This document shows, in pieces, positions 38,626-56,135 of a DNA stretch of 64,000 nucleotides; positions within the stretch are counted from its first letter, which is position 1; every line of letters begins with the position of its first letter. Origin of the DNA: Pseudomonadales bacterium. GTDB lineage: Bacteria > Pseudomonadota > Gammaproteobacteria > Pseudomonadales > DC-out160. Below the pieces are notes generated by a model. It was given only the letters and a program-made list of their open reading frames with translations, was not told where the DNA came from and did not search any database. The DNA lies in assembly GCA_019090455.1 (NCBI GenBank), contig JAHRWA010000058.1:1989-65988 (forward strand), written 5' to 3'. The position numbers and the translations under genes were made by a program.

Positions 38626-39912
38626 ATGAGCTTATTTACTAACAGCATAAAAGGCGCCCTGAGACTAGGGCAAACGTCCCGCACATTATCGACAACGGGA
38701 GCAAAATGGCTTTTAGGCGATAGACCTCCGCCCCCGAAACTACTACGCCAAACCTTTGAAAAACTAGGCACTACCTATATAAAATTAGGCCAGTTTATAG
38801 CCAGTTCACCTTCTCTATTTCCTGACGAATATGTTGAAGAATTCCAACATTGTTTGGATAACACGCCCCCCATTCCTTTTAGCACCATTAAGAAGCTCCT
38901 CATTAAAGAACTGGACAAACCACCGTACCAAATTTTTTCTGAGATAGATCCAACGCCTCTTGCAACGGCATCCATTGCACAGGTTCATGCAGCGAAATTA
39001 ATAACCGGTGAAGATGTTGTTATCAAGGTTCAGAAACCTGGCGTTAAGAATATTCTCTTAACAGACCTAAACTTTCTGTATGTATCTGCCAGACTATTGG
39101 AAACCATCGTCCCCAAACTATCCATGGCATCTCTCGCCGATATCGTTGATGAAATTCAAAAAGGCATGCTTGAAGAATGTGATTTTTTTAAAGAAGCCAA
39201 GAACATTGCAGATTTCAATCAGTTTCTGAAAGATACTGGCAACAACGATGTCGTCGCCCCAAAAGTGTACAAACAAGCGAGTTCATTGCGCGTCCTCACC
39301 ATGGAACGATTTCATGGTGTCCCCTTCACTGATCTGGACAGCATCAAAGATTATGTTGAAGACCCTCAGCAAGTTTTAATAACGGCCATGAACACCTGGT
39401 TTTCTAGTTTAATGCTAAGTCAGTCTTTTCACGCGGATGTCCATGCCGGCAATATGATGATATTAAAAGACGGCCGGATAGGGTTTATCGATTTTGGCAT
39501 CGTTGGCCGTATCAAACCTGAAACTTGGTCTTCGGTGACACTGTTCATTCAGTCTATTAGCGACGGCGATTACCACGGCATGGCTAAATCAATGCTAGGG
39601 ATAGGCATCACTAAAGAAAAAATCAATCTTGATGCATTAGCCAAAGATATAGAAAAACTGTATCAGTCAGTCAATACCGCTACTACCATGCCCGCACGCC
39701 AAGACACTATTGATGACAAAGATGTGAATAAGGCAATGATGGATCTACTCGGAATCGGCAAACGATATGGCATCCACTTCCCGCGAGAATTTGCGTTACT
39801 GTTGAAACAAATTCTTTACTTCGATAGATACGTACAGCTTATCTCACCGGACCAGAACATTTACTCGGACGATCGACTCGTTATGCTGGCCGATCCCACG
39901 CCAGACTATTAA
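38626..39912 (+). CDS. ABC1/UbiB (AarF) family atypical kinase
   Basis: LGTTYIKLGQF, PLATASIAQVH, VVIKVQKPG, LTMERF, FHADVHAGN, FIDFGIVG. Confidence 0.9.
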   Translation: MSLFTNSIKGALRLGQTSRTLSTTGAKWLLGDRPPPPKLLRQTFEKLGTTYIKLGQFIASSPSLFPDEYVEEFQHCLDNTPPIPFSTIKKLLIKELDKPPYQIFSEIDPTPLATASIAQVHAAKLITGEDVVIKVQKPGVKNILLTDLNFLYVSARLLETIVPKLSMASLADIVDEIQKGMLEECDFFKEAKNIADFNQFLKDTGNNDVVAPKVYKQASSLRVLTMERFHGVPFTDLDSIKDYVEDPQQVLITAMNTWFSSLMLSQSFHADVHAGNMMILKDGRIGFIDFGIVGRIKPETWSSVTLFIQSISDGDYHGMAKSMLGIGITKEKINLDALAKDIEKLYQSVNTATTMPARQDTIDDKDVNKAMMDLLGIGKRYGIHFPREFALLLKQILYFDRYVQLISPDQNIYSDDRLVMLADPTPDY

Positions 39913-39968: not shown

Positions 39969-40002
39969 CTTGGTCGATCACTGGGTCCACAAAGCCAACT
40001 GG

Positions 40003-40305
40003 CTATGCAGCCCCCGCCTCAACTAGAATATCAACATATTCTGCAAACCGGATATTAGGAGTGATGGATTCAAGAAAAGAAACACCTCCCGAATCTTTCG
40101 CATTGATATCGTACCCTGCCTCTTTAAAAAAAACCAAAAACCGCTTGAATGCCGAGGATGTCATACCACGATAAGCTTTAACCAGAACTTGAAAACTCTT
40201 AGATTCTCCCTGAGGCGGCTCCCAAGCTAAATACGATAAAAGCATTTCATCAGTGAATACTTCATCAATCACCTTTTTCTTATCAGGTCTTGGTTTTGTT
40301 GCCAT
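40003..40305 (-). CDS. PA4642-family small conserved protein
   Basis: DKKKVIDE, LVKAYRGM...FKRFLVFFKEAGYDINAKD resemble the Pseudomonas PA4642 family (from recall). Confidence 0.75.
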   Translation of the reverse strand: MATKPRPDKKKVIDEVFTDEMLLSYLAWEPPQGESKSFQVLVKAYRGMTSSAFKRFLVFFKEAGYDINAKDSGGVSFLESITPNIRFAEYVDILVEAGAA

Positions 40306-40506
40306 GAATCTACCCTCGCATTAGATTTACCGAATGCGAAGACTAACATATATTAGGCTTAATTTTGACTAGCCAGCTCAAAAGGCAAAACTTACAACGC
40401 GCTGGAATTGGAATAACACGGTTCGCATCGGCCACATTCAAAGACTTACAAAAATTAAAGTCATTTTCGCAGCTGAATACCTAGTTCTAGATTGTGCAGC
40501 TCAAAT

Positions 40507-41070
40507 CTATGGCTCAATCTTATTGAGCACCAAGCCTTCTAGTGAATCTGAAGATGTAAACGCGACATTTAGCCCGCGATACCATGATAGAGGCGTTAAG
40601 GTAATGGATGCCTCTACATTGTCCATCTGATGCTCTGGGAGACTAATTTCAAAATTCGATTGGCCTTTGCCCTCCACTAAGTTCACCCAAGATATATTGC
40701 TAAGAGAGAGCTCTTCAGCTGCTTTGAAACTCACATCCACCTGTATTTGAACAAAGGCATGCTTGGACAATTGAGGATGGCTGGCTAACACCTGCACGTT
40801 ACCGGTGAGCACAGGATCAAACATCTGATCTTTGATATCATAATTCAACGCCTGAAACTCAATGTTCAACGGTTCATTCATAACACCCTGAGCCGCGTGA
40901 GCGGTCTGAATATTATTTTCCAATGATTTTAGTTTTACTTGGAGTAATTTGATTTTAGCCTGAGCATCCTCATCATTACATCCCAGAAACCAAGGAAGAG
41001 CACTTACCATTAATAAAACGCGTAACCCACCAAATCGTTTTTTATAATCTGCCACTTCGGAATAACTCAC
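40507..41070 (-). CDS. Hypothetical lipoprotein
   Basis: Hydrophobic stretch with lipobox FLGC, then a coiled coil and beta-rich domain; 6 bp downstream of the mltC-like gene. Confidence 0.65.
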   Translation of the reverse strand: MSYSEVADYKKRFGGLRVLLMVSALPWFLGCNDEDAQAKIKLLQVKLKSLENNIQTAHAAQGVMNEPLNIEFQALNYDIKDQMFDPVLTGNVQVLASHPQLSKHAFVQIQVDVSFKAAEELSLSNISWVNLVEGKGQSNFEISLPEHQMDNVEASITLTPLSWYRGLNVAFTSSDSLEGLVLNKIEP

Positions 41071-41076
41071 CCTTCG

Positions 41077-42426
41077 TTAGACGTTTTTATAGAGAGCCTT
41101 TCGAGACAACACTTTTCGCAAATATAATTGTGTTTCTCTCGCAGACAATCCTTCCAGCAAACGTTCCAAAACCTCATCATCACTCATCTTGTTAATATGA
41201 GGTATTGCCTTATTCATTTGCGGCCTTCGAATGAAGGCTTTAGCCACGTTTGCCGCACCGGTATTGTATGCCGCTATCGCACAATACATTCTACTTTTAG
41301 GTTTACTGATATCACCCAGATATCGGTAATACAACAAGTTCAGATAAGCCGCCCCCAATTCAATATTATTGGTTGGGTTGTAAAGGTAGGAGGCCGAGAA
41401 CCGCTTTGGCTTATCAAATAATGCTCGCGACGCATCTCGCCCTGCAGTAGCCGGCACTATCTGCATCAACCCATACGCAGGCGCAGACGATCTTGCTAAA
41501 GGGTTGAAATGACTTTCTGTGTGAATGATGGCAAATAACAGTTCAGACGGTACTTTTAACTGTCCTGCATACCGAGCGACTGTGGGCTTAAGCTCCTTCG
41601 CTTTTTTTCGAAGCCTATCTTTCGGTAGTGGTACCGTGTATGTCAGCTTTTTGTTAAGCGTTACCGGCACAGTCACACCCAGCGAAGAGTTCTTAGCCAA
41701 TACCTTTTCGCCCTTAGGCAAGTCAGTAGAATTGGAGTCAAGCGCAGCAAAATTCTGCTGATATGTGATTAGTGCAGACTGCATCATTCTTGTTGCCAAA
41801 CGCTGGGCGTCTCGGGTACTCGGCCTCTTAGCGGAAAACAATTCGCTGAGCACTACATCCGAGTTCAGCGATGCCAAATACTCTCGGTCCCCTTTAAACT
41901 CCCTTCGAACGGTGGCACTAACAGGGTCATCTTCATAAGCTCCGTCTAAGCCCGTCAATAACACCTTAATCAGTTGAGCCTTAACCTCTGCATTTGTTTT
42001 GACAAAATCGATTCGCCCATTTTTTTCTTCGCGCGGCAACGTTACCCTCACCTCATTTTCCTTAAAATCGACAACGCGCTTAATGGCCCAGTCCTCGCTA
42101 TAAACAACCCATGTCGTCGCATCCGACACCTCCGCTCGATCCCAATGCTTTTTGATACCTCTCACATACTGGCGCAAGGCGGAACGGTGTATCTTTTGAT
42201 CCATCAACCATTCAGAACCTGAGCCCTCCTCTACATCTTTAGTTGTTGGGATCAAATCGTCTTCTTTATCAATAACCCAGCTTGATGCCCCGGATGACAT
42301 TGCTGACAATACGAACATTATTACGCTGGCTTTTAACCATAATCGTTTTATCACCCTTGCCTCCTCACAATGCTCTCTTCCCGAAATGTCATTCAAACAT
42401 CTGTATGAATCAGATAGCGCTTGCAT
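41077..42426 (-). CDS. mltC: MltC-like lytic murein transglycosylase (DUF3393 + SLT)
   Basis: IIHTESHFNPLARS, AYGLMQIVPATAGRD, LYNPTNNIELGAAYL, AYNTG; N-terminal WVVYS..RVVDF. Start uncertain. Confidence 0.85.
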   Translation of the reverse strand: MQALSDSYRCLNDISGREHCEEARVIKRLWLKASVIMFVLSAMSSGASSWVIDKEDDLIPTTKDVEEGSGSEWLMDQKIHRSALRQYVRGIKKHWDRAEVSDATTWVVYSEDWAIKRVVDFKENEVRVTLPREEKNGRIDFVKTNAEVKAQLIKVLLTGLDGAYEDDPVSATVRREFKGDREYLASLNSDVVLSELFSAKRPSTRDAQRLATRMMQSALITYQQNFAALDSNSTDLPKGEKVLAKNSSLGVTVPVTLNKKLTYTVPLPKDRLRKKAKELKPTVARYAGQLKVPSELLFAIIHTESHFNPLARSSAPAYGLMQIVPATAGRDASRALFDKPKRFSASYLYNPTNNIELGAAYLNLLYYRYLGDISKPKSRMYCAIAAYNTGAANVAKAFIRRPQMNKAIPHINKMSDDEVLERLLEGLSARETQLYLRKVLSRKALYKNV

Positions 42427-42548
42427 TTCAATCTATCGGTTACTCTGAGTATCAGTATAGCTTTGGGTTAAAATTAACAGCGGCGAATTAAGTACTATTT
42501 TTTGATCAAATATCTCAATCGGCTAAATTGATCGAGCAAAAAAACGTG

Positions 42549-42561
42549 AATCAATCACTTA
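42549..42561 (+). promoter_or_regulatory. IHF consensus site in the divergent promoter region
   Basis: AATCAATCACTTA matches WATCAANNNNTTR. Confidence 0.4.
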
Positions 42562-42764
42562 GCGTTTTTCGTCGATCGCACCATTTTTTTAGAAACTTTT
42601 TCCATAAGCCTCCTCGTCAACAAAACCAAATTCACTCTAACCCCCACATCCGGTATGTTAGCTATTAAGAGATATACTCAGTTATTAGAAGTTTCGTGGT
42701 ACCTTTACAGGCAGATTTTGTGCTCTCTGATAAATCAAATTAAGTTGGGAAACTAGACGTCATT

Positions 42765-44042
42765 ATGCGGAAACATCAATACCCCTACAGCGCATTTGTC
42801 ACCGGCGTGCTTGATGCGGAAGGCTTTCACGCCGAGCTGTTAGCTTTACTACGCCGCGATCCCACTATGGCAGTCAATGCCATAGACGAATTAGCAGCAT
42901 TGCACCGACAACACAAACTTCCTGAAGATATTTATTCTGACCTTAGGCGTCACGTAGAAACCATCGCGGCTAAGCAGGTCTTTGATCATGTAAAGACAAT
43001 TGATCCTTCAGAAATACCAGATGAGCCCCCAACCGAACTAAGGAACGACCCCGCTGTAGCCACGATGTTACGCTCTGATCCCGAACCCGATGACGACGCC
43101 ACGCTCATTAAAACTACGACTACAAAAATCGAACAAACTGCTGTGAACAATAGAGCAGAACCTCTGCGTCAAAAAGCCACGAGTCACAACGAAGCAGATC
43201 AAGTGACAGAAATAAATACGACATTGGAGAATCGAACCCACATAGGCAGCCGCACTGATGTCCATAAAAAAACTCAAACAGAGAAAATAAATGAGCGGCA
43301 ATTCGATAACGATTCCCACGATCCAATTTCTAGGAATAAAGCACGCAATTACACCAGCAAGTCTGACAGCGTCGAACTGAATCTAAAGATACGAAAAGCG
43401 GTCAGCGTAATCGCTCTGGCTTCTGTTCTGTTGGTCATTTACATGGTAAGTCCCAGCGATGTGGAAACAGTCGGTGTTGCCGCTCCAATTCATTACAAGT
43501 CGCCACCAGAATCAAAGCCTGACGCCAAAGAAGTACTTCCTAGCACACAACAAATCGAAGAAAGAATAAATACTGCAAACAATATCACTGAAGAAACATT
43601 AGAAGAGCGCCTTTTAAAATTTTCAACTCGTACCAAGGAGTTCAACTCTACCGGCACCTGGAGCGAAAACGAAACAGCACCTCGCATAGGCATTATTCCA
43701 GACAAAGCAGAGGACATGAGCCTGAACAACACGACAGCCCCTCCAACAACTGCATTATTTCACCACTCTTTATCTATTACACAACTTCATCAGCGGGCAT
43801 TAGCTCGCGCCAATGCCCTTAGACTTGAACCTTCGTCGGATCCTGATAGCGCGACGGGCTACCTTAAACAAATGATAGAAAAAGATAAAAACAGCTCACT
43901 TATCCGAGAAACTCGAGCCGAAATTGCTAAAGGGTATCTGGCTTTAGCGAGACAGGCGAGGAAAGAGGGAAATTGGGACCGCGTCAATCAATTGTTAGAG
44001 AAGGCAATTGATATCAGACTGGAAAATAGTGTCATTTACTAG
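42765..44042 (+). CDS. Hypothetical bitopic membrane protein (helical N-domain, Thr-rich linker, TM, periplasmic TPR-like domain)
   Basis: TM AVSVIALASVLLVIYMV; C-terminal RLEP..DSATGYL...IAKGYLALARQA..EGNW resembles the C-terminus of the neighbouring kinase. Confidence 0.75.
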   Translation: MRKHQYPYSAFVTGVLDAEGFHAELLALLRRDPTMAVNAIDELAALHRQHKLPEDIYSDLRRHVETIAAKQVFDHVKTIDPSEIPDEPPTELRNDPAVATMLRSDPEPDDDATLIKTTTTKIEQTAVNNRAEPLRQKATSHNEADQVTEINTTLENRTHIGSRTDVHKKTQTEKINERQFDNDSHDPISRNKARNYTSKSDSVELNLKIRKAVSVIALASVLLVIYMVSPSDVETVGVAAPIHYKSPPESKPDAKEVLPSTQQIEERINTANNITEETLEERLLKFSTRTKEFNSTGTWSENETAPRIGIIPDKAEDMSLNNTTAPPTTALFHHSLSITQLHQRALARANALRLEPSSDPDSATGYLKQMIEKDKNSSLIRETRAEIAKGYLALARQARKEGNWDRVNQLLEKAIDIRLENSVIY

Positions 44043-44087
44043 AGTTAGATTGGCACGACAATAAAAGATAACTTCTCAATTTAGAAC

Positions 44088-45461
44088 TTATGGTGAGTCC
44101 AACGCCTTCAACTTCTTATCTAACTCTTGAAGCCCTTGATGAGCAGGAAACAGCTCTAAACCTGTATCGACAAAATAACGCGTCTCTCCCACTATCCCTT
44201 GACCATAAAGCGCTTCACACCGGTCATAGAACTGATTGGCGACATTATTTAAACCGTCAATTGCACTCCTATTATAGGGATCAATTTCCAACACCATTTG
44301 ATAAGCATCAAATGAATTGCCACCCGCAGGAGAAACCAACCGGCCAACTAACAAGTGAGCACGGGCTACCTTTAACAAACGAGTCACTTTGCTTGAGTCT
44401 TCAGCTCCCGGTTTACTTCTCTCTTCGTGATGGGAGGGCTGCACAACAATACCTTCACGCAATTCAGTAGAAGAATTTCCTTCTGCATTACTACCCTGCA
44501 ATACAATGGGTTCAGATGACAGCTTATCTAGGGGCGAATTCGCGAGCCAATAGCCCGCTCCAATCGCAGCCACAAACACGGAAATGGCGCCAGCCGCAAC
44601 AACAGTATTTTTAGTCTTTCTCCCACCAACTTCCTGACCGCGCAAACAGTTCTGTAATGCCAATTTAAATTCTTCTGCAGTCTGGAAGCGTTGGTCCTGT
44701 TTTTTTGCTAACGCTTTTCGCAGCACACTATCAAACGCTTTGGGAATATCTTCATTTAATTTACTGGGGTCAACGATCGCGGTATTCACCACATTGTGCA
44801 TTATGGTGTTAGACATATCTCCCTTGAAAGTCTTGCGCCCGGTCAACAGCTCGTACAACATCACAGCCGTTGAAAACAAATCAGATCGAGCGTCTACTGT
44901 TTCCCCCAAACACTGCTCTGGGGACATATAACTGGGGGTTCCCAATACACTACCCATTTGTGTAAGTTCTGAATTCTCCACGCGAGCAATACCAAAATCA
45001 GCAATTTTTATTCCGGCATCATCAAGGATAAAAATATTGGCCGGCTTAATATCTCGATGCACAATTCCAAAACCATGGGTATAGGCTAAGCCGTCTAAGA
45101 TCTGAGAAATCAGACTAACCACATCCTGTGTAGAAAATGGATGTTTGTCTTTCATCATTGAACTTAATTCTCGCCCATGAACCAACTCCATCACAAAATA
45201 GGGCATATTATTTTCAATATCGAAATCGTAAATCCCGACAATATTGGCATGAGTCAGCCGACCTACGGCTTTGGCTTCATTACTAAACCGTTGCATCATT
45301 TCCTGCCCCATTTCTGAGCCAAGTAAAGATTCATGTATTGTTTTAATGGCAACGAATCGATCAATATAAGGATCATATGCCTTATAAACGATTCCCATCG
45401 CACCTTTTCCCAAGACTTCATCAACACGATATTTGCCTATATGGCTCAAGTCACTCGTCAA
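44088..45461 (-). CDS. Transmembrane Hanks-type Ser/Thr protein kinase
   Basis: LGKGAMGIVY, VAIK, HRDIKPANI, DFG, GTPSYMSPEQ, DARSDLF; TM VVAAGAISVFVAAIGAGYWL; periplasmic helical domain. Confidence 0.95.
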   Translation of the reverse strand: MTSDLSHIGKYRVDEVLGKGAMGIVYKAYDPYIDRFVAIKTIHESLLGSEMGQEMMQRFSNEAKAVGRLTHANIVGIYDFDIENNMPYFVMELVHGRELSSMMKDKHPFSTQDVVSLISQILDGLAYTHGFGIVHRDIKPANIFILDDAGIKIADFGIARVENSELTQMGSVLGTPSYMSPEQCLGETVDARSDLFSTAVMLYELLTGRKTFKGDMSNTIMHNVVNTAIVDPSKLNEDIPKAFDSVLRKALAKKQDQRFQTAEEFKLALQNCLRGQEVGGRKTKNTVVAAGAISVFVAAIGAGYWLANSPLDKLSSEPIVLQGSNAEGNSSTELREGIVVQPSHHEERSKPGAEDSSKVTRLLKVARAHLLVGRLVSPAGGNSFDAYQMVLEIDPYNRSAIDGLNNVANQFYDRCEALYGQGIVGETRYFVDTGLELFPAHQGLQELDKKLKALDSP

Positions 45462-45567
45462 ACCCTTTCAACTCCTTATGTATTATTAGTGCAATCAACA
45501 TTGGCTTTATATGGCCTTGGGAAAACCGAATTTGGATTAATTTCAACGAAGGCTCCCTAGTTGATTC

Positions 45568-45610
45568 GAGTTAAAAAAAAGCACCGATAATCGGTGCTTT
45601 TTTTTAACTC
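45568..45610. terminator. Strong rho-independent terminator between the caspase and kinase genes
   Basis: GAGTTAAAAAAAAGCACCGA-TAA-TCGGTGCTTTTTTTTAACTC. Confidence 0.88.
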
Positions 45611-45625
45611 TCATATTGGTTCCCA

Positions 45626-47794
45626 TCAAATACTAACAGGTTGAAAAAAGAATTCCCCTGCTTCATGTCCAGCGTGTCTAATCGGAGAATACTCTGGTAT
45701 CTGTTCAAGCTCCAGCGATTGCGACCGTGAGCGGACTTGCGACAAAACACTTCGATAAAGCGTATGCCCTTCCATCACCCCTTCATTCGCTTCTAACGTA
45801 TCGATAAATGCCTTCGCAAAAACAGAATGATCGCCGCCGCCGCCATCCATGACAGGGGCTATCCCTCCGGAAGTCAGTACTGTTCTTGCGCGCGTTTCCG
45901 ACATAATTTGTATCCACTCTTCTTTCAATTCATTTGGCATGGAGACATCCGGCCTAGCCATAGAAGTACTAGAAAGAGTGCCGGCGTAGCACGAATCAGC
46001 AACTACCATAACGTGCTTAGCCGGCATTGCATTGAGAATATCCGTTATTGCAACATTTGAAATCCAGTTCGTTGTGTTGTCGACTTCCGCGTCCACTGGT
46101 AACCAATAACCGCGTGTGTTCTTCTGATCCAGCTCACCATGTCCCGCATAATAGACAAGCAGGTTATCTTTCTCTGACAATGTTTCTCGCAATTTATTGA
46201 GCGCAGACAAAATCGAGTAACGATCCGCATTCTCTAATAAAACAGTTTTATAACCGTACTTCCTATTCAACAGCTCTGCCGTTACCTTTGCATCATTCAC
46301 CGCCGTATCTAAACTGGGAAAATGCGTGTATTGGTTATTACCGATAACCAATGCATAATACCTTCCCAACGAAACTGACGTCTTTTGCTTGCGACTGACG
46401 GTGCTTGCTTCAGCTGAATTAAAGCCCACTAGACGCTCGGCCTCAAAAGAAAAATCCATTGCAACTCTTCGGCCTTCTTTGTCAATTGCCACCACTTGAA
46501 CAGGTGTGCTCGATCTTAGAATAGGCATATCAACCCAGAAGAGATTATGTTTATCCAAGTCATAAGCCGCATCGTTAATCTTGAGTGAATGCAGCCCGGC
46601 AGGTGCCAATACTTTACCAATTATTTCCCGTTGTTTAACTGCTGAACGCAACTTTACCGTGGCACGCCCTCGGGTCAAAATCATGGGAGGCTCTATTATT
46701 TCTATAATAGGTGCGTCAAAAACAGTCGTATCGACGACTGCTAACTGTTGAAGGTTATCGCTAAATCGATTACGGGAATTTTTCAGGGTCGTAATTTTTT
46801 GTTTTTGTTGCTCTACTTGCGTTCTATTTTGAAGAAGTTCTTCTTCTAGAGCGGCAATCACAAGCTCTCGCTGCTTTCCTAACGCGAGCGTCTCACTAGT
46901 AAAGGCAATCAACTCTTCATCATGCCTATCCCTCTCCAAATTTATTTTTTCTTGCAACTTGATCAACTCGGCCTGCTGGACCTCTTTAGAAACACTAGGG
47001 TCCAACAATAATTGTTTCGCCGCTTTTAATTTGGCAGTCGTATCATTTAAGGCACTCTGAGCACCGACCAAACTCGTTTCCCTAGCAATCAATGCTTTTT
47101 GAGAGGATCGTAATTGGCGCTCCAAATCTGCTTTCTCTTTTTCCTGCAATGCACTTTTGTCCTTTAGTGCTTGTAGCTCTGCTTGAGAAGCGTGCGCTGC
47201 CTGAACTGTAGAGGCATACTGGAGTTTATCGGTGTTGAGCCCAGAGGCTTTTCGATACCAGTTCAGTGCGATACTGGTATCCTTTTCTACACCTAGCCCT
47301 TTTTCATATAAATGCCCAAGATTAATCTGAGAACGGGACAGCTTCTGTTCAGCTGCTAATTTATACCAATGCGCCGCGGCCTCGTAATCCGGTAAAATAC
47401 CTAAGCCACGTTCGTAAATTTCACCAACATAGTTTTGTGCTTCTGCGGAACCCGCTTGCGCTTGCGGCAACCAAACCTTTAACGCAGTTGCGTAATCTGA
47501 CCGGTCAAAAGCAACGTACTCCCCTCCTCGAATTTCACAATCTGCGGCAGTTGATTTTACCGGTCTTCGCGCCGTTAGATAACTGGCCTGAGCGCCCAGT
47601 TTGCGAACCTGGCCAGGTAGAAGACAATCCACGATCATCAAATCATCTGCATTCCGAGATGCCTGCTCAAGAAGCTCTGTCGCTCCTTCCTGAGGGCTGT
47701 TAGCACAACTCGCGAGAAACATTGATAAAAGGGAGCTACAAAACCATGCCCGCTGTTTTTGCCCTTCAATTGAAATAAATTTTATTCGAGTCAT
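45626..47794 (-). CDS. Lipoprotein with Sel1-like repeats, coiled coil and C-terminal caspase (peptidase C14) domain
   Basis: Lipobox FLASC; Sel1 repeats AEAQNYVGEIYERGLG and SQINLGHLYEKGLG; caspase motifs YALVIGNNQY, AVNDA, YYAGHG (His), VADSCY (Cys), GDHSVFA. Confidence 0.92.
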   Translation of the reverse strand: MTRIKFISIEGQKQRAWFCSSLLSMFLASCANSPQEGATELLEQASRNADDLMIVDCLLPGQVRKLGAQASYLTARRPVKSTAADCEIRGGEYVAFDRSDYATALKVWLPQAQAGSAEAQNYVGEIYERGLGILPDYEAAAHWYKLAAEQKLSRSQINLGHLYEKGLGVEKDTSIALNWYRKASGLNTDKLQYASTVQAAHASQAELQALKDKSALQEKEKADLERQLRSSQKALIARETSLVGAQSALNDTTAKLKAAKQLLLDPSVSKEVQQAELIKLQEKINLERDRHDEELIAFTSETLALGKQRELVIAALEEELLQNRTQVEQQKQKITTLKNSRNRFSDNLQQLAVVDTTVFDAPIIEIIEPPMILTRGRATVKLRSAVKQREIIGKVLAPAGLHSLKINDAAYDLDKHNLFWVDMPILRSSTPVQVVAIDKEGRRVAMDFSFEAERLVGFNSAEASTVSRKQKTSVSLGRYYALVIGNNQYTHFPSLDTAVNDAKVTAELLNRKYGYKTVLLENADRYSILSALNKLRETLSEKDNLLVYYAGHGELDQKNTRGYWLPVDAEVDNTTNWISNVAITDILNAMPAKHVMVVADSCYAGTLSSTSMARPDVSMPNELKEEWIQIMSETRARTVLTSGGIAPVMDGGGGDHSVFAKAFIDTLEANEGVMEGHTLYRSVLSQVRSRSQSLELEQIPEYSPIRHAGHEAGEFFFQPVSI

Positions 47795-47894
47795 AGCAAC
47801 AAACCTCTCAGATCAACATATCTAACTTAACGTAATAATCATCTTGCAAACCAATAGGTACTTCCGACAGTCCTCTTTTTATTTCTGCCGGATT

Positions 47895-48233
47895 TCATCG
47901 ATATACGCTATAAATAGCGTATATGCTCACCACTAGCGCTAGCCCAATGATAATCAGCCCCCATCTTCTTTTTTTATTAGGGTAATCGCCTACAACATCT
48001 GCCGACGCCACTTTCGCTCTCATTGCCGTGGAATCGCCAACCATTCGTTCTATTACAGGTTTGTTTACACCATTGACTGGCGTGTCTTCTGCTTGAGGAA
48101 TTTCAACAATCAAGCCTTCACAATAATCCAGTATAGTATCCCGCTGCTCTCTATAACTTTCTTTATCTAGCTCACCAGTGGCATACAATTGAGCCAATTT
48201 TTTTAGCAGGGCACCCTCTTTCCTCTCATCCAT
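47895..48233 (-). CDS. Small C-terminally anchored membrane protein with SHOCT-like N-terminus
   Basis: LKKLAQLYATGELDKESYREQRDTIL; KKRR followed by TM WGLIIIGLALVVSIYAIYSVY. Confidence 0.7.
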   Translation of the reverse strand: MDERKEGALLKKLAQLYATGELDKESYREQRDTILDYCEGLIVEIPQAEDTPVNGVNKPVIERMVGDSTAMRAKVASADVVGDYPNKKRRWGLIIIGLALVVSIYAIYSVYR

Positions 48234-48286
48234 TTAAACTAACCCTAAAGAATACTGTTCTAACCCGAGTTACGGTAATACTTTGA

Positions 48287-49018
48287 CTACAATGCTTTGA
48301 CCACAATCACCGATACGTTATCTTTTGCTCCCCGCTTTAATGCCGCTTGGATGAGCTCTCCCGCAACTCTGTCCACCCTATCTCCACGTAAATAGGCATC
48401 AATTTCGGACATACCTAGCTCACCATAGAGTCCGTCACTGCAGAGTAAAAACGTGTCATCTTTCTTAATATCAAATACCGTTGCATCTAAATGTAGATCT
48501 GGCGCTGCACCAACCGCTCGAGTAATCACATTCGATGCTGGATGATTTTCCGCTTCCTGCTCCGAAATCAGCCCCCTTTCTATCATTTCATTCACTTGAC
48601 TATGATCTGTAGAGATAAGCTGTAGATGGCCACGACGCTTACGGTATAACCGAGAGTCTCCAGCCCATAAACAGACGCCAACACTTTCATGTACCAGTAA
48701 AGACACTACTGTACACCCCATAGTGCGCCCCCCGTATTCTGACTCTGACCGCCTTAATATATTATCGTGAACTTGATGAATAAGATCTTCAGCTTGATTC
48801 ACAAATTGACTTAATTTGACGTGCTGAGTTGTTTCACTCAAGGCTTTCACCAACATCTGACTCGCGACATCACCGGCTTCGTGCCCACCCATGCCGTCAG
48901 CGACCGTCCACAAACCAACCTCTGACCTATCTAACACGGAGTCTTCATTAATTTTTCTCACATAACCTGTATGAGTCTCCGCACACGAACGCCAAGTATA
49001 GTTTATACCCATGGGCAA
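48287..49018 (-). CDS. PP2C/PPM-family Ser/Thr phosphatase (PppA-like)
   Basis: THTGYVRKINED, VADGMGGH, WAGDSRLY, DHS, NVITRAVG, LLCSDGL, DNVSV. Confidence 0.95.
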   Translation of the reverse strand: MPMGINYTWRSCAETHTGYVRKINEDSVLDRSEVGLWTVADGMGGHEAGDVASQMLVKALSETTQHVKLSQFVNQAEDLIHQVHDNILRRSESEYGGRTMGCTVVSLLVHESVGVCLWAGDSRLYRKRRGHLQLISTDHSQVNEMIERGLISEQEAENHPASNVITRAVGAAPDLHLDATVFDIKKDDTFLLCSDGLYGELGMSEIDAYLRGDRVDRVAGELIQAALKRGAKDNVSVIVVKAL

Positions 49019-49072
49019 CCTTTTATTATAATCATGATTATTCCACCAAGATAATGAGTGGCGTTTCTGCTA

Positions 49073-50416
49073 TCAATTTACTATTAGCTGCTGAACAGCT
49101 TCTTCATAAGCTTCAGAAAAGTCATCCATAAATAAGCGTTGATAAGCATCTACATTGCCAGTCACCTGCTCAGCATACAGAGACACGAAGGCGTCCCAGT
49201 ACTTCGCTTTTTTGGAGGAATGCATAATACCTGCATTGTTTTTATCACACAGATCTTGGATAACAGTAGGGTCGAACTTTTCCATCAACTGGACGAAAGT
49301 GGTTTCCATTGCAATCGGCATTGCCTTTTGATGAACATCAATATCTTTGAAACCTTGGCGTATAGTTTCTGTCGGCGGCAAATACCCTCTGCCACGACGC
49401 ACCAGTATATTCTCTAATGCTTCTTCAGCAGAAACTGAGAGCTTTAAGGGGTTATTTTCACTAGCCTGAATACTCGTAGTCGAAGCACTAAATTGGTTCT
49501 TTATATTACTCCGAACTTGCAATGCGGTCATTTGACCTTGAATACTCTCTTTTAAAACAACGGTCATCAATTGAATAACAGCCTCTACTTTCTCTTCTCC
49601 GATCAACTCACTCGGAATACCTAATAAGCCTGCAATTTCTTGGGCTTGTTCTTTCAAATAAAGTTTGATATCCCCTGCATTCCCTCGATTTACTTGCTTT
49701 ATATTTTCTGCTTCGTTCTCAACAGCCCCTAGATTATCAGACCTCTTAACGCTCAACGATTCAATGACTTCCTGCACACTTTCCGATAAACCTGACTCAG
49801 CATCCTCCCTATTGACATCGAACCCCAATGAATCTCCCCTGCTGATATTATCTTGCTGCTCAATGAACGCGATCTCCGCCGCGAGTACGGCACTCTCTTG
49901 CGAAACCTTAGACTGCAATATTACCGGCCCAGGAGAATAGGTACTCCTCGATTCCATTTTTTCAACTTCGCCCGTTTCATCGATTTTACTGGCTTGCCCT
50001 GGCTCGTTATTTCCGTCAGAAAAAGAAATCCCCTCCCGTGCCAGTGCCTGCATCTCAGCTGTCATACCCGCAAATGGGCTATCGATATAACCAGGAATTC
50101 CCACGCAAACTCGTATCTCATAATCTCCAATTATCACAACATCTCCATGCTTAATTCGGGATTTATTACCCTCACCGATGGGCTCCTCCGAGTCATTGAT
50201 ATAGACACCGTTGGTACTGACATCGACTAGGAAATACGATTCATTATCGAACTCAATTTGGGCATGGTAGGACGACACAAACCGGTCCTCATCAGGTAAT
50301 TGCCAGGTATTACTGTCTCCCCGGCCAATTGTCCCGCCTTTATATCCAAAGGTCTTGCGAGGTTCTACGTCTGCTATTCCAGAAGGTTGGCGGATAATAA
50401 TTAACTCTAAAGACAT
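49073..50416 (-). CDS. tagH: FHA-domain protein, TagH/Fha-like
   Basis: FHA motifs TIGR, VSSYHAQI, DVSTNGVYIN; C-terminal ENNPLK..AEEAL..GYL..DIDVHQ.A..FDP..KAKYWDAF...F..AYE typical of T6SS-associated Fha. Symbol assigned by homology only. Confidence 0.82.
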   Translation of the reverse strand: MSLELIIIRQPSGIADVEPRKTFGYKGGTIGRGDSNTWQLPDEDRFVSSYHAQIEFDNESYFLVDVSTNGVYINDSEEPIGEGNKSRIKHGDVVIIGDYEIRVCVGIPGYIDSPFAGMTAEMQALAREGISFSDGNNEPGQASKIDETGEVEKMESRSTYSPGPVILQSKVSQESAVLAAEIAFIEQQDNISRGDSLGFDVNREDAESGLSESVQEVIESLSVKRSDNLGAVENEAENIKQVNRGNAGDIKLYLKEQAQEIAGLLGIPSELIGEEKVEAVIQLMTVVLKESIQGQMTALQVRSNIKNQFSASTTSIQASENNPLKLSVSAEEALENILVRRGRGYLPPTETIRQGFKDIDVHQKAMPIAMETTFVQLMEKFDPTVIQDLCDKNNAGIMHSSKKAKYWDAFVSLYAEQVTGNVDAYQRLFMDDFSEAYEEAVQQLIVN

Positions 50417-50784
50417 ATTAGTATCTATCTCGCTATTAAATTATCTTGGGTACGCCTAAATAACGCACTATGGCGAATACACTCCAAGTATAACTCATCA
50501 AGTTACGCCCAATTAATTTGATGATTAAGTGGTTATTTTACAAATCCCATCAATAATAATGCCAAATACAATACTAACGAAAAGACAATTCTGGCTCATC
50601 ACACCTTAGCGTATTTAACATTACTGGATACCAATAACGTAAAATGGGTTCGATAATGAAGACAAAAAAGAAAAGGCACAATAGACAGGCTGTCATTGTA
50701 TAGGCAGATACTGGGACTTTTAAATCGCCGAGACATAAACTCGACATAGGGGTTCAACCTACGGAACCCCCTTAGAGACACTCA

Positions 50785-52893
50785 TTATTTTTGTTTCTTT
50801 TTCTTCTCTTCTTTCGCCGCTTTTTTTGCCTGCTTCTTTGCCCGCTTCATTTCTTTTTTTGTTCTACGCGCTTCGTCACCAGACAAGCCCAGCTTGCCAT
50901 GATACAAACTCTCAATTTCTTTAGGAAGTTCCGGTTTTTCCTCTTTAAACAAGGATAATTTCCCTAACGCATCTACACCAATTTGGAGCTCACGAAGATG
51001 CTTGTATTTTCGTTCCGTTACGCTTTGTAGCGAATTTGCATCTCGAATAATAGTCGGTGTTAAGAACACTAGTAAATTCCGTTTAACTCGCTTTCGCTGA
51101 GTGCTCTTAAACAAACGTCCTATCAATGGAATATCACCCAACAACGGCACTTTGCTTTCTGAGTCAGTAAAGTCATCTTGAATCAGGCCACCGAGTACGA
51201 CTGTATTAGCATTGTCCACTAAGATAGTTGTCTTTATTGATCGCTTGCTAGTAATCAGGTCCGCTGATTGAACGCTCTCTGACGTAGGTACAACAGCTGA
51301 AACCTCTTGCTCAACCTGCAACCGAATAACATCTCCGTCATTTATTTGAGGGACTACTTTTAACGTCAGCCCTACATCTTCTCTGGAAATGGTTTGAAAC
51401 GGATTGTTAGTCGTACTTGAACCACTTGTAGATGTCCCTGTTATAAACGGAACGTTTTGCCCAACGACTATTTCAGCTTCTTCATTATCTAAGGTCATAA
51501 TACTTGGGGTTGAAAGCAGATTGGCATTTGAAGCATTGGCTAACGCCTGCACAAGCACGCCATAGCCCTTTGTTCCTGCACTATTTCTCTCGCCCCCAGC
51601 GATGGTTATACCATTTGCAAGCGCTGCGCCTGTCCCGGCACTAAGTGCGCCAAGCACATTATTTAGACTCCCGCTTCCTTCAAAATTCACTCCCACGAGA
51701 GGCTGACCAAGGTTTTTGTCGTGGACACCCCACTGTACTCCGAGCGCTTTTGATATATCGCCCGACACTTCCACGATCGCTGCCTCTATCAACACCTGCG
51801 CTCGACGCACATCTAACTGCCTAACCACGTCTTGAATTTCTTGTAAATCTGCGGGCTCGCCTCTTATCACTAACGCATTGAGTGTTTCATCCGCTTGGAT
51901 ATTGACTTCTTCCTGTACCGCTTCCTTTTTCCCCCCGCCCTTCCTTTTCTTCTTAGAGGAAGCCATCAAGCCTTTTAGCACTTCGGCTACTTTGACCGCA
52001 TCTCCATGCCGTAAATAGATTACCTTGGTAGTTCCGGTATGCTTAGAAGGTTGATCCAATTTCCTTACCAGCTCTCTTATTCTAGCTCTAGCCGATTTTT
52101 CACCTTTAACAATAAGTCGGTTCGTACGCTCTTCCGCCACAACCCTAACACGTGCCGCTTTATTCTTAGATTTGCCCTTTCCCGTCGCAACTGGAGTCAA
52201 GCGCTCCAACAAATCCACAACATCCCCGACCCACGCCTCTTTCAGTTGTATCACTTCGATTTCTTCACTTTCGGCTCCATCAAGCCTCTCTATAATTTGT
52301 ATTATCCGTTTTATATTTTCTGCATGATCACTAATAATTAACGCATTTGCAGAAGCTACCCCTGCAAGATGGCCATACTGGGGCACCATGGGGCGCAAAA
52401 TAGGCACCAATTCAACAGCAGGAGTATTCTTAACAGCGATTACTTGGGTAATCAGCTCCTCGCCTCGCGAATCCGAGTCCTTCGCAAAACGAATAGTGTC
52501 TTGCTTAGCACCCGTATTCGGCACCACTTTCAGAACACTTCCCGAGGGTACGGCAGCATAGCCATGCACATTCAGTACTGACTGAAATAGCTCAAACACC
52601 TCCTCTTCTGACAGGTTAGTCGTGGAGATGACCGTAACCTTTCCTTTAACCCTGGGATCGACCACAAAGCTACGCCCAGTAATGTCGGATATTTGAGTGA
52701 TAAAGGCGCGAATATCGGCATCTTTGAGGTTAACTTTCCATGTTTGATCTTCCGCCATACATATGCGGCTTAATGAAATCAAAATTAGAACAAAGAAAAT
52801 CAACCCACGGCTCACTTGGGTTGAGAATTGAAACTGACTTTTGGTTTTACTCGATAACATTGATGCCACTCTTTTAATCTTCAATATATACAA
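50785..52893 (-). CDS. gspD: Type II secretion secretin GspD
   Basis: VNLKDADIRAFI, VDPRVKGKVTV, LDVRRAQVLIEAAIVE, LSTPSIMTLDNEEA, KVPLLGDIPLIGRLF. Start uncertain. Confidence 0.96.
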   Translation of the reverse strand: MYILKIKRVASMLSSKTKSQFQFSTQVSRGLIFFVLILISLSRICMAEDQTWKVNLKDADIRAFITQISDITGRSFVVDPRVKGKVTVISTTNLSEEEVFELFQSVLNVHGYAAVPSGSVLKVVPNTGAKQDTIRFAKDSDSRGEELITQVIAVKNTPAVELVPILRPMVPQYGHLAGVASANALIISDHAENIKRIIQIIERLDGAESEEIEVIQLKEAWVGDVVDLLERLTPVATGKGKSKNKAARVRVVAEERTNRLIVKGEKSARARIRELVRKLDQPSKHTGTTKVIYLRHGDAVKVAEVLKGLMASSKKKRKGGGKKEAVQEEVNIQADETLNALVIRGEPADLQEIQDVVRQLDVRRAQVLIEAAIVEVSGDISKALGVQWGVHDKNLGQPLVGVNFEGSGSLNNVLGALSAGTGAALANGITIAGGERNSAGTKGYGVLVQALANASNANLLSTPSIMTLDNEEAEIVVGQNVPFITGTSTSGSSTTNNPFQTISREDVGLTLKVVPQINDGDVIRLQVEQEVSAVVPTSESVQSADLITSKRSIKTTILVDNANTVVLGGLIQDDFTDSESKVPLLGDIPLIGRLFKSTQRKRVKRNLLVFLTPTIIRDANSLQSVTERKYKHLRELQIGVDALGKLSLFKEEKPELPKEIESLYHGKLGLSGDEARRTKKEMKRAKKQAKKAAKEEKKKKQK

Positions 52894-52896
52894 TCA

Positions 52897-53874
52897 TTAC
52901 ATGCAAGGAACATTCACCGTAAAACGCCGAGGACCACGCTCTATTTCAACGCTCACATCACCTTCGCAATTCGTTGCCAATTCTTCAAACATATACCTGT
53001 CTCGCTCAATATCACCTAGCATTTCGCCATTAACAGAAAGCACTGTATCCGACGGTTTTAAACCCACAGTCTTTAGCATCTCCATTGGCGCTGTTGATCC
53101 CACTTTATACCCACCACCATCAGCCATGGGAATCACTTCTATGCCCAATTCCTTTAAGGCGGCCCCAGCATCGGTTTGAACATCGGCGTTAATACTGCTG
53201 ACTAACTCACTTGGGGAGGGCAGGTGACCTTGATTGACCAACTGTCCTAAACGAGATTTAGGATCCTTGATTATCTGTCGTTTTGAATTTTTATTCTTAT
53301 TTCGTCGTTTTTTTCTTAGTTTCTTTTTAAGTGCGCGTTTACCGCCAGTACTAGCCAAGCCTGTCTTAGCAATTTTAGGGAAATAAAGCGCCTCTAGCCG
53401 GCCAAGCTGATTGAGAATAATTTTATCGCCATATACCGTTTCAAGTACCGCATTGCCAGGCAGCTTATCGCCGACTTTATATACTTTTCCCGACTTTCCT
53501 TTTTCAGCAACAATAGCGGAAGAATCCACATCTACCCTAGCCATAAAAACACCTTTAAGGACTAGAGGTAGTCGAGTCACCGGCGCTTTGACTTCTTTAT
53601 TTGATTTCGCTACGACTTTTGAAGGTTTTTTACCAACCTCCCCAAACAGGTGCCAACGACGTATTCCTGCGAGACTGACACTTGATACCGCCCTAGTCCC
53701 ACCGGCAACCGTCATCGGCTCAATATTCTCTATTTGCGGATCAGCGGGACCGTCCAAAAAAAGCCATGTGATGTTGGCTACGGTATAGCTAATCAATAGC
53801 ACGAGCACTAAACAAACAAAACCAATTCCACGATCGAACCAAGCATCTGTTGTTATTTTCTGTTGCTGGCTCAC
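52897..53874 (-). CDS. gspC: Type II secretion protein GspC (HR + PDZ)
   Basis: N-terminal TM, HLFG, APVTRLPLVLKGV, YKVGDKLPG, GLKPSDTVLSVNG (PDZ); RBS AGGAG. Confidence 0.9.
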   Translation of the reverse strand: MSQQQKITTDAWFDRGIGFVCLVLVLLISYTVANITWLFLDGPADPQIENIEPMTVAGGTRAVSSVSLAGIRRWHLFGEVGKKPSKVVAKSNKEVKAPVTRLPLVLKGVFMARVDVDSSAIVAEKGKSGKVYKVGDKLPGNAVLETVYGDKIILNQLGRLEALYFPKIAKTGLASTGGKRALKKKLRKKRRNKNKNSKRQIIKDPKSRLGQLVNQGHLPSPSELVSSINADVQTDAGAALKELGIEVIPMADGGGYKVGSTAPMEMLKTVGLKPSDTVLSVNGEMLGDIERDRYMFEELATNCEGDVSVEIERGPRRFTVNVPCM

Positions 53875-54204
53875 CCAACTCTCCTGAGACCTAAATTATT
53901 CTTCATTACCTACCACCATCATGCACCTCATCATCAAACTACGCGTAAGCAGTGATCTCCGGACAAGAATAGGGTCGACATAGAAACCCAGGCGCCCCCC
54001 TTAAAACACTAGCTTACTTAACTCGACCTTAACAGAATCAAGCTTTATTATTCTTAAAAAAATCAACAACTAACATATGGCTTCTGTTCTACCATTTGCC
54101 TCTATTTTCAGTTTCAATATATGCTTGAGGCTTACCCATAAAAACACCCTGCTGCCAGCACCTACCCGCTCTACTCATTTTTTGACGCTGTTTGCTCTTC
54201 GGCC

Positions 54205-54963: not shown

Positions 54964-55240
54964 TCATTACTCTAACTTTTCACGAAGTTTTATAATTCAG
55001 CGATGAGCCTTTCTACGGCATCTTCGCGGGGCCTATGGTCTCTAACCATGCGTGACTTGTAAACTTTATTCGAGGGCAAATTGCCTTTTGATAACACATG
55101 GTAATCTCTAAATAATAGTCGACTTTGTGCACATTACTGTACACCACCTTGAGTCTCGTTATAATTCTGGCCCGACACGGCCGTCAATAAGCCGTATCCA
55201 ATCGCGAATTAAACCCCGATCAAAATTGAGACAACACAAT

Positions 55241-55987: not shown

Positions 55988-56135
55988 CCAAGAAGAGAGG
56001 CTCGCCCACTGAACTTTCAGGAACGAAAGAGTCCAAAAGAGATTCTCGCAATACTCAAATAGGGCTATGATAGCTTTGATAATTTATTAGACGATCATAA
56101 ACATAATCATTATTAAGAATCTAAGGATCAACAGA

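Follow-up and report, generated by a model that had tools for sequence, protein, structure and literature searches.

A gene cluster at positions 42765-50416 of a 64-kb stretch of DNA from a Pseudomonadales bacterium (the window, by which we mean the whole stretch that was analyzed; positions given without a contig name refer to it) encodes a caspase-like lipoprotein and, next to it, a membrane-spanning Hanks-type Ser/Thr kinase, together with a PP2C phosphatase and a TagH-like protein carrying an FHA domain. The caspase and kinase genes recur side by side on one strand in about 15 families, and we are largely confident that their products form a conserved functional pair. The fuller reading that we prefer, to which we give slightly less than an even chance, is that this pair is a conserved envelope sensor with exchangeable FHA outputs which, in this genus, is wired in trans to a type VI secretion system (T6SS).

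The cluster comprises six open reading frames (ORFs), five on the minus strand and a sixth, convergent with them, on the plus strand. Read along the minus strand, the five encode a TagH-like reader protein of 447 amino acids (aa) with FHA and T6SS_FHA_C domains (49073..50416, -; Pfam and NCBIfam), a PP2C Ser/Thr phosphatase of 243 aa resembling the eraser PppA (48287..49018, -; Pfam PP2C_2), a tail-anchored protein of 112 aa with a sub-threshold SHOCT-like match (47895..48233, -), the lipoprotein caspase of 722 aa with Sel1 and Peptidase_C14 matches (45626..47794, -; Pfam), and the bitopic Hanks kinase of 457 aa, a PpkA-like writer (44088..45461, -; Pfam Pkinase). The convergent gene encodes a bitopic protein of 425 aa without a family match (42765..44042, +). 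The TagH-like, PP2C and kinase genes thus share one strand within 6.3 kb, and 165 bp separate the caspase gene from the kinase gene. An earlier note on this DNA had listed the same six genes at the same coordinates, with intact kinase and caspase catalytic motifs, and ORF calls, Pfam matches and residues invariant in alignments bear this out. It had also proposed a trans-envelope topology, and the predicted locations of the products fit trans-envelope signaling: a lipoprotein caspase, a bitopic kinase with a periplasmic domain resembling tetratricopeptide repeats (TPR), and a cytoplasmic PP2C and FHA protein.

In order to determine how widely the neighborhood is conserved, related loci were collected from two samples. 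Among 60 relatives from the order, 10 places were fetched and 7 mapped; L014 (a 2.4-kb contig with the caspase only) was left out, as were L049 and L050 (relatives of the caspase domain only, without the N-terminal domain CaspN described below). Among 400 genomes from the class, the caspase half of the protein was matched at E<=1e-87 in 32 genomes besides the one that holds the window (its own genome), at 33 places, and the N-terminal half was also listed for 30 of the 32. Twenty of the 33 places were fetched, two unpublished genomes and the places on short contigs being left out. The mapped set is therefore 28 loci, namely the window and 27 loci from 26 genomes, and covers about 23 GTDB families.

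A Hanks kinase gene lies in the fetched stretch at 18 of these 28 loci, always on the strand of the caspase gene and at 14 of them less than 1 kb away. The kinase is upstream of the caspase at some loci and downstream at others, and the same-strand adjacency spans about 15 families. In four published genomes outside the mapped set (G334, G393, G127 and G373), a match to STKc, the periplasmic module of the kinase, adjoins the caspase by coordinates. For comparison, about 13 Hanks-kinase loci and 11 ORFs with an FHA domain were counted in the 5.55 Mb of the window's own genome; with that number of kinase loci a random 6-kb span would hold a kinase about 1.4% of the time, a figure to be read with the loci being kin and not independent of one another. 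Other partners are found as well: an autotransporter beta-barrel at 16 of the 28 loci, a lipoprotein alpha/beta-hydrolase at 13, a PP2C at 9 and an FHA protein, as detected by hidden Markov model (HMM), at 8, with homologues of FHA proteins found by clustering at three further loci. Six loci have neither kinase, barrel, hydrolase, PP2C nor FHA protein. The caspase is therefore central to a real conserved association, as had been supposed from the window alone. Of the expected co-occurrence with kinase, PP2C and FHA genes, the kinase part holds, and the other two appear only as optional partners.

The kinase has a catalytic domain at aa 11-262 (44676-45431, -; Pfam, 183.4 bits), a transmembrane (TM) segment at aa 286-304 (44550-44606, -; hydropathy) and a folded periplasmic fragment at aa 327-457 (44091-44483, -), within which the TPR-like helices of STKc occupy about aa 353-453. 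An alignment of 12 sequences shows no variation at K40, D137, N142 or the DFG motif. STKc is modeled by AlphaFold2 as five confident helices, with a predicted local distance difference test score (pLDDT) of 87.7. It resembles TPR arrays weakly (Foldseek E ~1e-2), and Pfam TPR_19 matches 5 of 12 members. Searched alone, STKc matches 77 of the 400 other genomes of the class, and cross-tabulation places it in 29 of the 32 caspase-bearing genomes versus 48 of 368 others. The module is also carried by kinases encoded within T6SS operons or next to them, in G350 (tssJKLM-tagF-PP2C-kinase), G345, G107 and G127. The window kinase is 37-52% identical to caspase-linked kinases versus about 29% to those embedded in T6SS operons, and its nearest relative outside the genus is the kinase of the caspase cluster of G356 (52% in the kinase domain; nearest tree path). 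That G356 kinase reads as two frames of 338 and 244 aa. Not every caspase-linked kinase has the module: those of L065, L066, L068 and L069 lack STKc, and the kinases of L066 and L069 bear DUF4384 instead (Pfam).

We also observed STKc in two to four tandem copies in large proteins (frames of 500-1240 aa) of many caspase-free genomes, for example at G071:C1:1770369-1771673; the module is a repeat family that is used more widely and has no dedicated Pfam model.

These data bear on the simplest alternative, in which the caspase is an unrelated neighbor beside a displaced T6SS threonine-phosphorylation module consisting of a tagH copy, pppA and ppkA. The triad in the window is indeed of T6SS type, and the T6SS elsewhere in this genome, described below, is without pppA and ppkA. 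Chance proximity is difficult to reconcile with one-strand adjacency of caspase and kinase at 18 of 28 loci, in about 15 families and in both gene orders, or with a kinase nearer in identity to its caspase-linked than to its T6SS-embedded relatives, and we consider this explanation highly improbable. The earlier note had itself raised the case of a T6SS elsewhere depending on these copies with the caspase as a bystander. What we found comes near to this, in that pppA and ppkA are absent there, but that T6SS still has an fha gene, and the caspase is no unrelated neighbor.

The caspase is built from several parts. The lipobox cysteine, assigned from the alignment, is Cys30. It is followed by CaspN, a new N-terminal domain at about aa 45-115 (47450-47662, -), Sel1 repeats at aa 101-183 (47246-47494, -), a coiled coil at aa 191-350 (46745-47224, -), an Ig-like beta-sandwich at aa 363-452 (46439-46708, -) and the caspase domain at aa 479-720 (45635-46360, -), in which Peptidase_C14 (PF00656) scores 88.1 bits against a Pfam cut-off of 21.4. 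The AlphaFold2 model (mean pLDDT 76.1) starts with a signal/lipobox helix, after which come a small domain rich in beta structure at aa 54-95 corresponding to CaspN, the Sel1 helices, a pair of very long helices (aa 191-263 and 270-350), the beta-sandwich and the caspase domain. The caspase fold of this model resembles MALT1 and metacaspases (Foldseek E 1e-11 to 1e-8).

Cys30 and the catalytic dyad H552/C602 are invariant in an alignment of 37 sequences. The dyad residues are each kept in at least 90% of a second alignment of 92 sequences, which consists of the window protein and those 91 of the 150 listed CaspN matches that are 550 aa or longer, shorter ones having been omitted as likely fragments. 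The invariance of the dyad argues that proteolysis, rather than scaffolding alone, is part of the mechanism. An aspartate, D600, stands two residues ahead of C602 in at least 90% of the 92 sequences. This position is Asp in metacaspases and paracaspases and Gln in caspases, and meta-, ortho- and paracaspases cleave after Arg or Lys and caspases after Asp; for the present family the correspondence is a lead only. In the E. coli rule for lipoprotein sorting, an Asp at position +2 governs whether outer-membrane sorting is inferred. None of the 27 aligned sequences that include the lipobox has Asp there, and by this rule the lipoprotein would be sorted to the outer membrane.

The best-conserved part of the protein is CaspN, with the motif VDCLLPGQ.RKLG...DCEIRGGEY, in which two Cys are invariant. 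When CaspN alone was searched against 1.84 billion representatives, 999 clusters at 50% identity were matched at E<=1e-3 and 686 at E<=1e-10, and the domain lies near the N-terminus in all 150 matches listed. Members that have a name carry no annotation beyond "caspase family protein" or "hypothetical" and come from marine Gammaproteobacteria, e.g. Ketobacter, Marinobacterium, Thiodiazotropha and metagenome-assembled genomes of Pseudomonadales. A search for related loci with the caspase alone returned one true relative, on the contig of the same-genus genome G001, and four Sel1-only proteins. The CaspN caspase family is single-copy in the window's own genome, and to our knowledge no member of the subfamily has a known substrate. 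The same genome encodes a second Peptidase_C14 protein of 563 aa without CaspN or Sel1 (C73:26410-28101; L076:8411-10102).

We next consider the proteins through which the pair may act. The reader protein has an FHA domain at aa 29-97 (50126-50332, -; Pfam, 58.1 bits) and T6SS_FHA_C (PF20232) at aa 265-439 (49100-49624, -; Pfam, 151.9 bits), and it passes the TagH model TIGR03354 with 264.6 bits against a cut-off of 120.25. It is closest to the TagH of its own genome's T6SS on contig C20 (40% identity in the C-terminal domain; others, 26-34%). Among relatives, 7 of 8 other TagH-like genes that encode the C-terminal domain adjoin tssK. The phosphatase matches Pfam PP2C_2 with 59.2 bits and an NCBIfam Stp1-type model with 215.9 bits, under the cut-off of 230; it is 45% identical to the T6SS-embedded PP2C of G350, 42-44% to four caspase-linked PP2Cs and 26-36% to three others. 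An ad hoc HMM found only two PP2C matches in the whole genome, that of the window and a PP2C-kinase fusion at C28:96101-97921, and the window phosphatase may serve several kinases.

The genome was then searched for a T6SS. No T6SS core gene was detected in the window by tblastn with 14 T6SS proteins of the same genome plus Hcp and VgrG of G356, whose only matches there were the FHA gene and, at 4212-6791, a ClpB-like gene. A complete T6SS is present on two other contigs: tagH-tssJ-tssK-tssL-tssM-tagF on C20, and tssA, tssB, two copies of tssC, tssE, tssF, tssG and clpV, followed by hcp and vgrG, on C28. The statement in the earlier note that the cluster stands without a T6SS is thus correct for the 64-kb window and wrong for the genome. 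The two tssC paralogues are adjacent (C28:209079-212197), and a third, divergent TssC-like gene lies at C9:165864-166730 (171 bits).

Kinase and PP2C genes are absent from both T6SS loci of this genome, on C20 and on C28; beyond tagF lie an ORF of 121 aa and a beta-propeller gene in convergent orientation. To compare, we read T6SS loci of relatives, which were fetched from the caspase-bearing genomes. A PP2C follows tagF or is fused to it at 9 of 11 readable T6SS loci (G350, G127, G404, G199, G202, G118, G107, G004 and G398), the two without one being those of the window's own genome and of G356. In G356, the caspase-kinase-PP2C-autotransporter cluster lies on contig C6 (L064, L077 and L093) a few kb from a T6SS cluster of the order DUF6931-hcp-vgrG-sigma54 activator-tagH-tssJKLM-tssABC-tssEFG-clpV, in which tagF, PP2C and kinase genes are all absent. 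In G404 the caspase and T6SS clusters are about 8 kb apart. TssK was found in 14 of the 32 caspase-bearing genomes versus 61 of 367 others. Given that the window's reader is a paralogue of TagH and that the T6SS no longer has a kinase and phosphatase of its own, we regard the T6SS as the prime candidate output, and hold this to be evenly balanced between right and wrong.

Several observations weigh against a pure T6SS role. TssK was not found in 18 of the 32 caspase-bearing genomes, and five of the TssK-negative ones (G207, G332, G274, G194 and G232), at 95-98% completeness, have a caspase-adjacent STKc kinase; since the pair is present in these five, it needs no T6SS. Three genomes (G127, G118 and G404) have a T6SS-linked kinase or PP2C in addition to a caspase-linked kinase. 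T6SSs with TagH but without a kinase work in V. cholerae and others, according to the available passages of PMC13584744, and because such systems function, the T6SS of this genome may not need the triad of the window. The TagH-type FHA partner is restricted, within the 28 loci, to the window and the same-genus G001, and FHA partners elsewhere are quite different proteins (two FHA domains, vWA-TM-FHA and FHA-cyclase), at least four kinds in all. The barrel and the hydrolase, frequent at caspase loci, are unexplained by a T6SS role, and single close homologues of both are retained by the window's own genome away from the cluster, the barrel with a 230-aa partner on C29 and the hydrolase on C35. 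In the kinase-domain tree, caspase-linked kinases are not united and the backbone is unresolved, and a clade with 100/99 support joins six caspase-linked kinases with two paralogues from the window's own genome (C101 and C106) that are not caspase-linked. Finally, ORFs were called with a simple in-house script, and domain labels outside the window come from ad hoc HMMs checked against Pfam on representatives only. Co-inheritance of kinase and caspase, which we had sought to read from the kinase tree, is not shown by it because of the unresolved backbone and because paralogues of the same genome nest among the caspase-linked kinases.

Some of these data would suit a self-contained trans-envelope signaling system divorced from the T6SS, in which the caspase senses or cuts a component of the envelope and the FHA protein drives the neighboring type II secretion system (T2SS) secretin, wall remodeling or a stress or death response. 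We consider this a possible, though not a probable, explanation. It would account for the many caspase-bearing genomes without a detected TssK and for FHA outputs such as a cyclase or a vWA domain at other loci. It also agrees with a 384-aa protein with FHA and T6SS_FHA_C domains encoded on C106 (C106:51920-55861; L073:5921-9862), directly upstream of an 899-aa Hanks kinase-FGE-sulfatase fusion; no T6SS gene was found near this pair, which counts with the observations above, and it shows that a TagH-like protein can be paired with a kinase outside T6SS loci. TagR of Pseudomonas is of the FGE-sulfatase type, and the C106 fusion may be a fused TagR-PpkA-like sensor. Peptidoglycan-related neighbors recur as well. 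An OmpA-like gene is directly upstream of the caspase at three loci (L065, L068 and L069; checked with Pfam in L069), a LysM protein is encoded directly downstream of it in L052 (Pfam), with two ORFs alike by size and place only in L054 and L066, and an ORF with an SLT domain lies within the fetched 20 kb at 4 of the 28 loci (the window, L042, L051 and L059).

Against such a divorce, the FHA protein retains the whole TagH architecture with a score above the curated cut-off, and the T6SS of this genome is without the kinase and phosphatase genes found at tagF in relatives. Upstream of the FHA gene and on its strand lie gspN (54205-54963, -; Pfam T2SSN), gspC (52897-53874, -; NCBIfam GspC 67.7 bits, under the cut-off of 101.6) and gspD (50785-52893, -; NCBIfam GspD 570.3 bits against a cut-off of 351), with a gap of 369 bp between gspD and the FHA gene; downstream of the cluster is a lytic transglycosylase gene with an SLT domain (MltC-like C-terminus; 41077..42426, -). 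We treat these genes as context, not as shown members of the cluster. The gspD/FHA adjacency occurs only in the window and G001 among the 28 loci, the adjacency of the SLT gene as in the window is likewise shared only with G001, and a 60-aa ORF between gspD and the FHA gene is not conserved in G001. The gsp genes look like housekeeping copies: the single GspL match of the genome lies on C103 in a run of ORFs (C103:21876-29991) that fits gspE-M by size only, no GspD-like match was found on C103, and tblastn found no second GspC and no close second GspD in the genome. The outer half of the housekeeping T2SS is probably encoded in the window, the system as a whole looking split. The secretin and the MltC-like enzyme, which the earlier note had named as possible outputs, therefore have no comparative support. 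Its broader idea that the writer, eraser and reader triad has been repurposed holds in part: the pair does occur without TssK, but the reader is a TagH paralogue, STKc is carried by T6SS-embedded kinases, and the T6SS of this genome has neither PP2C nor kinase.

The barrel and hydrolase genes raise a further alternative, in which the caspase matures, releases or degrades an autotransporter passenger and/or acts with the hydrolase, and in which kinase, PP2C and FHA protein only tune this processing. Both partners, at 16 and 13 of the 28 loci, are often less than 2 kb from the caspase gene, the passengers are variable and some have Ig-like repeats, and the homologues on C29 and C35 show that this genome has kept both. 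However, the window cluster itself has neither an autotransporter barrel nor a lipoprotein hydrolase, and 12 of the 28 loci are without a barrel. A lipoprotein on the periplasmic face would moreover miss a surface passenger unless it were surface-exposed, and the kinase, the tightest partner, would be left unexplained. We therefore judge envelope processing as the primary role to be unlikely.

A last alternative is that the cluster serves phage defense or programmed death, with kinase signaling unleashing a caspase-like executioner. Bacterial caspase homologues are often discussed in the context of death and conflict systems, as in the available portions of PMC3501461 and PMC7159879. The kinase domain scores 326 bits on the PD-T4-6 model of PADLOC, the caspase and PP2C have weak PADLOC matches, and the caspase has a sub-threshold match to the NCBIfam model "caspase, EACC1-associated type" (72.5 bits against a cut-off of 140). 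On the other side, the caspase is predicted to be exported as a lipoprotein, which would place it away from cytoplasmic targets, and its family is single-copy in this genome. The matches in PADLOC-DB 2.0 are generic (PD-T4-6 and mad6), no system of such composition is among its models and three of the six proteins are unmatched. The neighbors, judged from ORF maps, are envelope proteins and not mobile or defense islands. Such a system strikes us as quite unlikely here.

In our preferred reading, a conserved envelope sensor that in this genus is coupled in trans to the T6SS, the core of the module would be an outer membrane-type lipoprotein (CaspN, Sel1, coiled coil, Ig-like domain and caspase) plus a bitopic PpkA-like Hanks kinase, with a PP2C and an FHA protein, the latter of varying kind, as optional parts that would determine the output. 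An event in the envelope would alter the binding or cutting of targets by the periplasmic caspase, the candidate target being the TPR-like domain of the kinase or a protein bound to it. The kinase would then autophosphorylate, and the TagH-like FHA protein would dock on phosphothreonine and/or be phosphorylated itself and so promote assembly of the T6SS encoded elsewhere, with PP2C returning the system to its starting state. The membrane proteins of 112 and 425 aa would be genus-level additions, perhaps anchors or substrates. Gene content, domains, intact motifs, the conserved pairing of caspase and kinase and the modules in common with T6SS-embedded kinases and phosphatases are observed; the physical interactions, the proteolytic step and the T6SS output are inferred. 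As a more general proposal, which we consider possible though not probable, exported CaspN-type caspases may be the sensory front end of PpkA-like kinases, such that envelope damage or attack leads to proteolysis of the TPR-like domain or of a bound protein and then to threonine phosphorylation in the cytoplasm, with interchangeable FHA outputs, which would be T6SS firing in this case and, elsewhere, cyclic-nucleotide synthesis or others.

Both membrane proteins are lineage-specific. The 112-aa protein has a SHOCT-like match at its N-terminus (E 8.5e-5; 22.6 bits, under the Pfam cut-off of 27) and a TM segment at its extreme C-terminus (aa 92-110; hydropathy) and, being tail-anchored, is almost wholly cytoplasmic by prediction. 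The 425-aa protein has one TM segment (aa 212-230; hydropathy), a helical periplasmic C-terminus and a Thr-rich cytoplasmic linker, and no family was found for it in Pfam, NCBIfam or PADLOC. Alignment of STKc with its C-terminus gave an hhalign probability of 14%. Among the 28 mapped loci each protein occurs only in the window and G001, the one homologue being that of L042 (45% identical for the 425-aa protein). Both had been called Thr-rich, which is true of the 425-aa protein (8.9% Thr, with 17 Thr in aa 81-200, versus a mean of 5.4% for the ORFs called between 34000 and 60000) and not of the 112-aa protein (3.6%).

The proposed system is best compared with the threonine-phosphorylation pathway of T6SSs (TagE/PpkA, TagG/PppA and TagH/Fha1), which occurs in the P. 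aeruginosa H1-T6SS, Serratia and Agrobacterium. The writer, eraser and reader families are the same, the window kinase is likewise bitopic with a periplasmic sensor part, and a TPR-like module of the window type together with a PP2C is also found inside T6SS operons of relatives. The two differ in that the window cluster lies outside a T6SS locus, its lipoprotein is a predicted active caspase with Sel1 repeats, its TagH is a second copy beside that of the T6SS operon, and the caspase-kinase pair also occurs in genomes without a detected TssK. In the available text of PMC13713981 and PMC13584744, the lipoprotein TagQ with periplasmic TagR activates PpkA after membrane damage, and the logic of TagQ/TagR-PpkA-Fha1 (an outer-membrane lipoprotein, a periplasmic partner, a kinase and an FHA protein) is alike. 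No TagQRST sensor homologue was recognized at the cluster, and no search aimed at TagQRST sequences was made.

A second precedent is the ExoR-ExoS(ChvG)/ChvI system of Sinorhizobium and Agrobacterium, which resembles the window in having a periplasmic Sel1 protein, a membrane kinase and periplasmic proteolysis. As described in excerpts of PMC3460628, ExoR binds its sensor kinase and is removed by periplasmic proteolysis, which turns the Agrobacterium T6SS on. In contrast to the Hanks-type kinase of the window, the ExoR system uses a histidine kinase and transcriptional control, and ExoR has no protease domain, whereas Sel1 and protease are combined in one lipid-anchored polypeptide in the window. 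The kinase and the PP2C score highest on the NCBIfam models of PknB/Stk1 and Stp1 (313.7 and 215.9 bits), both under the curated cut-offs (450 and 230). An extracytoplasmic sensor domain and a cognate PP2C are shared with that system, but the window kinase has no PASTA repeats and differs by its TPR-like periplasmic module, Gram-negative host and caspase partner.

With bacterial caspase homologues (orthocaspases and metacaspases) the window protein shares Peptidase_C14, the His-Cys dyad and a MALT1/metacaspase-like fold. The available part of a metacaspase survey (PMC3501461) already lists Sel1 among the commonest partner domains of bacterial metacaspases, many of them predicted to be exported; the same part makes no mention of CaspN, of an architecture of lipoprotein, coiled coil and Ig-like domain, or of linkage to kinase, PP2C, FHA, autotransporter or hydrolase genes, and "FHA" occurs in it 0 times. 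The literature searched, in the form in which its texts were accessible, likewise contained no CaspN domain, no lipoprotein of this architecture and no tie between a caspase and T6SS phosphorylation pathways. It held no description of a neighborhood of caspase, Hanks kinase, FHA protein and PP2C; supplementary tables lay outside the search, and the operon tables of PMC3501461 may list members. The composition thus appears to be undescribed, as the earlier note had supposed. To the extent that the available text of PMC3501461 allows, the combination of Sel1 and Peptidase_C14 counts as already published; what would be new is a conserved sensor partner for threonine-phosphorylation signaling.

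Threonine-phosphorylation control of the T6SS is understood mainly in Pseudomonas, and a caspase genetically tied to PpkA-like kinases is a testable candidate for an upstream sensor. If this is true, it would be the first defined role for the large family of caspase homologues that bacteria export (about 1000 clusters at 50% identity) and would supply a sensor for T6SS phosphorylation pathways outside Pseudomonas. The same sensor pair combined with different FHA outputs would then be a general route for proteolysis-coupled signaling across the Gram-negative envelope.

A scan of 40000-56000 for promoters and terminators gave the same counts as shuffled sequence, and no operon boundaries can be drawn from it. 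RNA contigs from three metatranscriptome runs of one marine-sediment study are 90-99% identical to parts of the FHA, PP2C, 112-aa, caspase and kinase genes, and some bridge neighbors (FHA/PP2C, PP2C/112-aa gene and caspase start/112-aa gene). These matches show that the cluster of a close relative is present in the RNA libraries; they do not show transcription units.

Besides the SLT gene, a 187-aa protein without a family is encoded downstream of the cluster. Two small predicted outer-membrane proteins of the DUF481 and YfaZ families are encoded at 55127-56690, divergent from gspN. A UbiB/ABC1-type atypical kinase is encoded at 38626-39912 (275.8 bits against the UbiB equivalog cut-off of 487.55) and, because its score is well under the UbiB cut-offs, is probably a paralogue and not UbiB itself.

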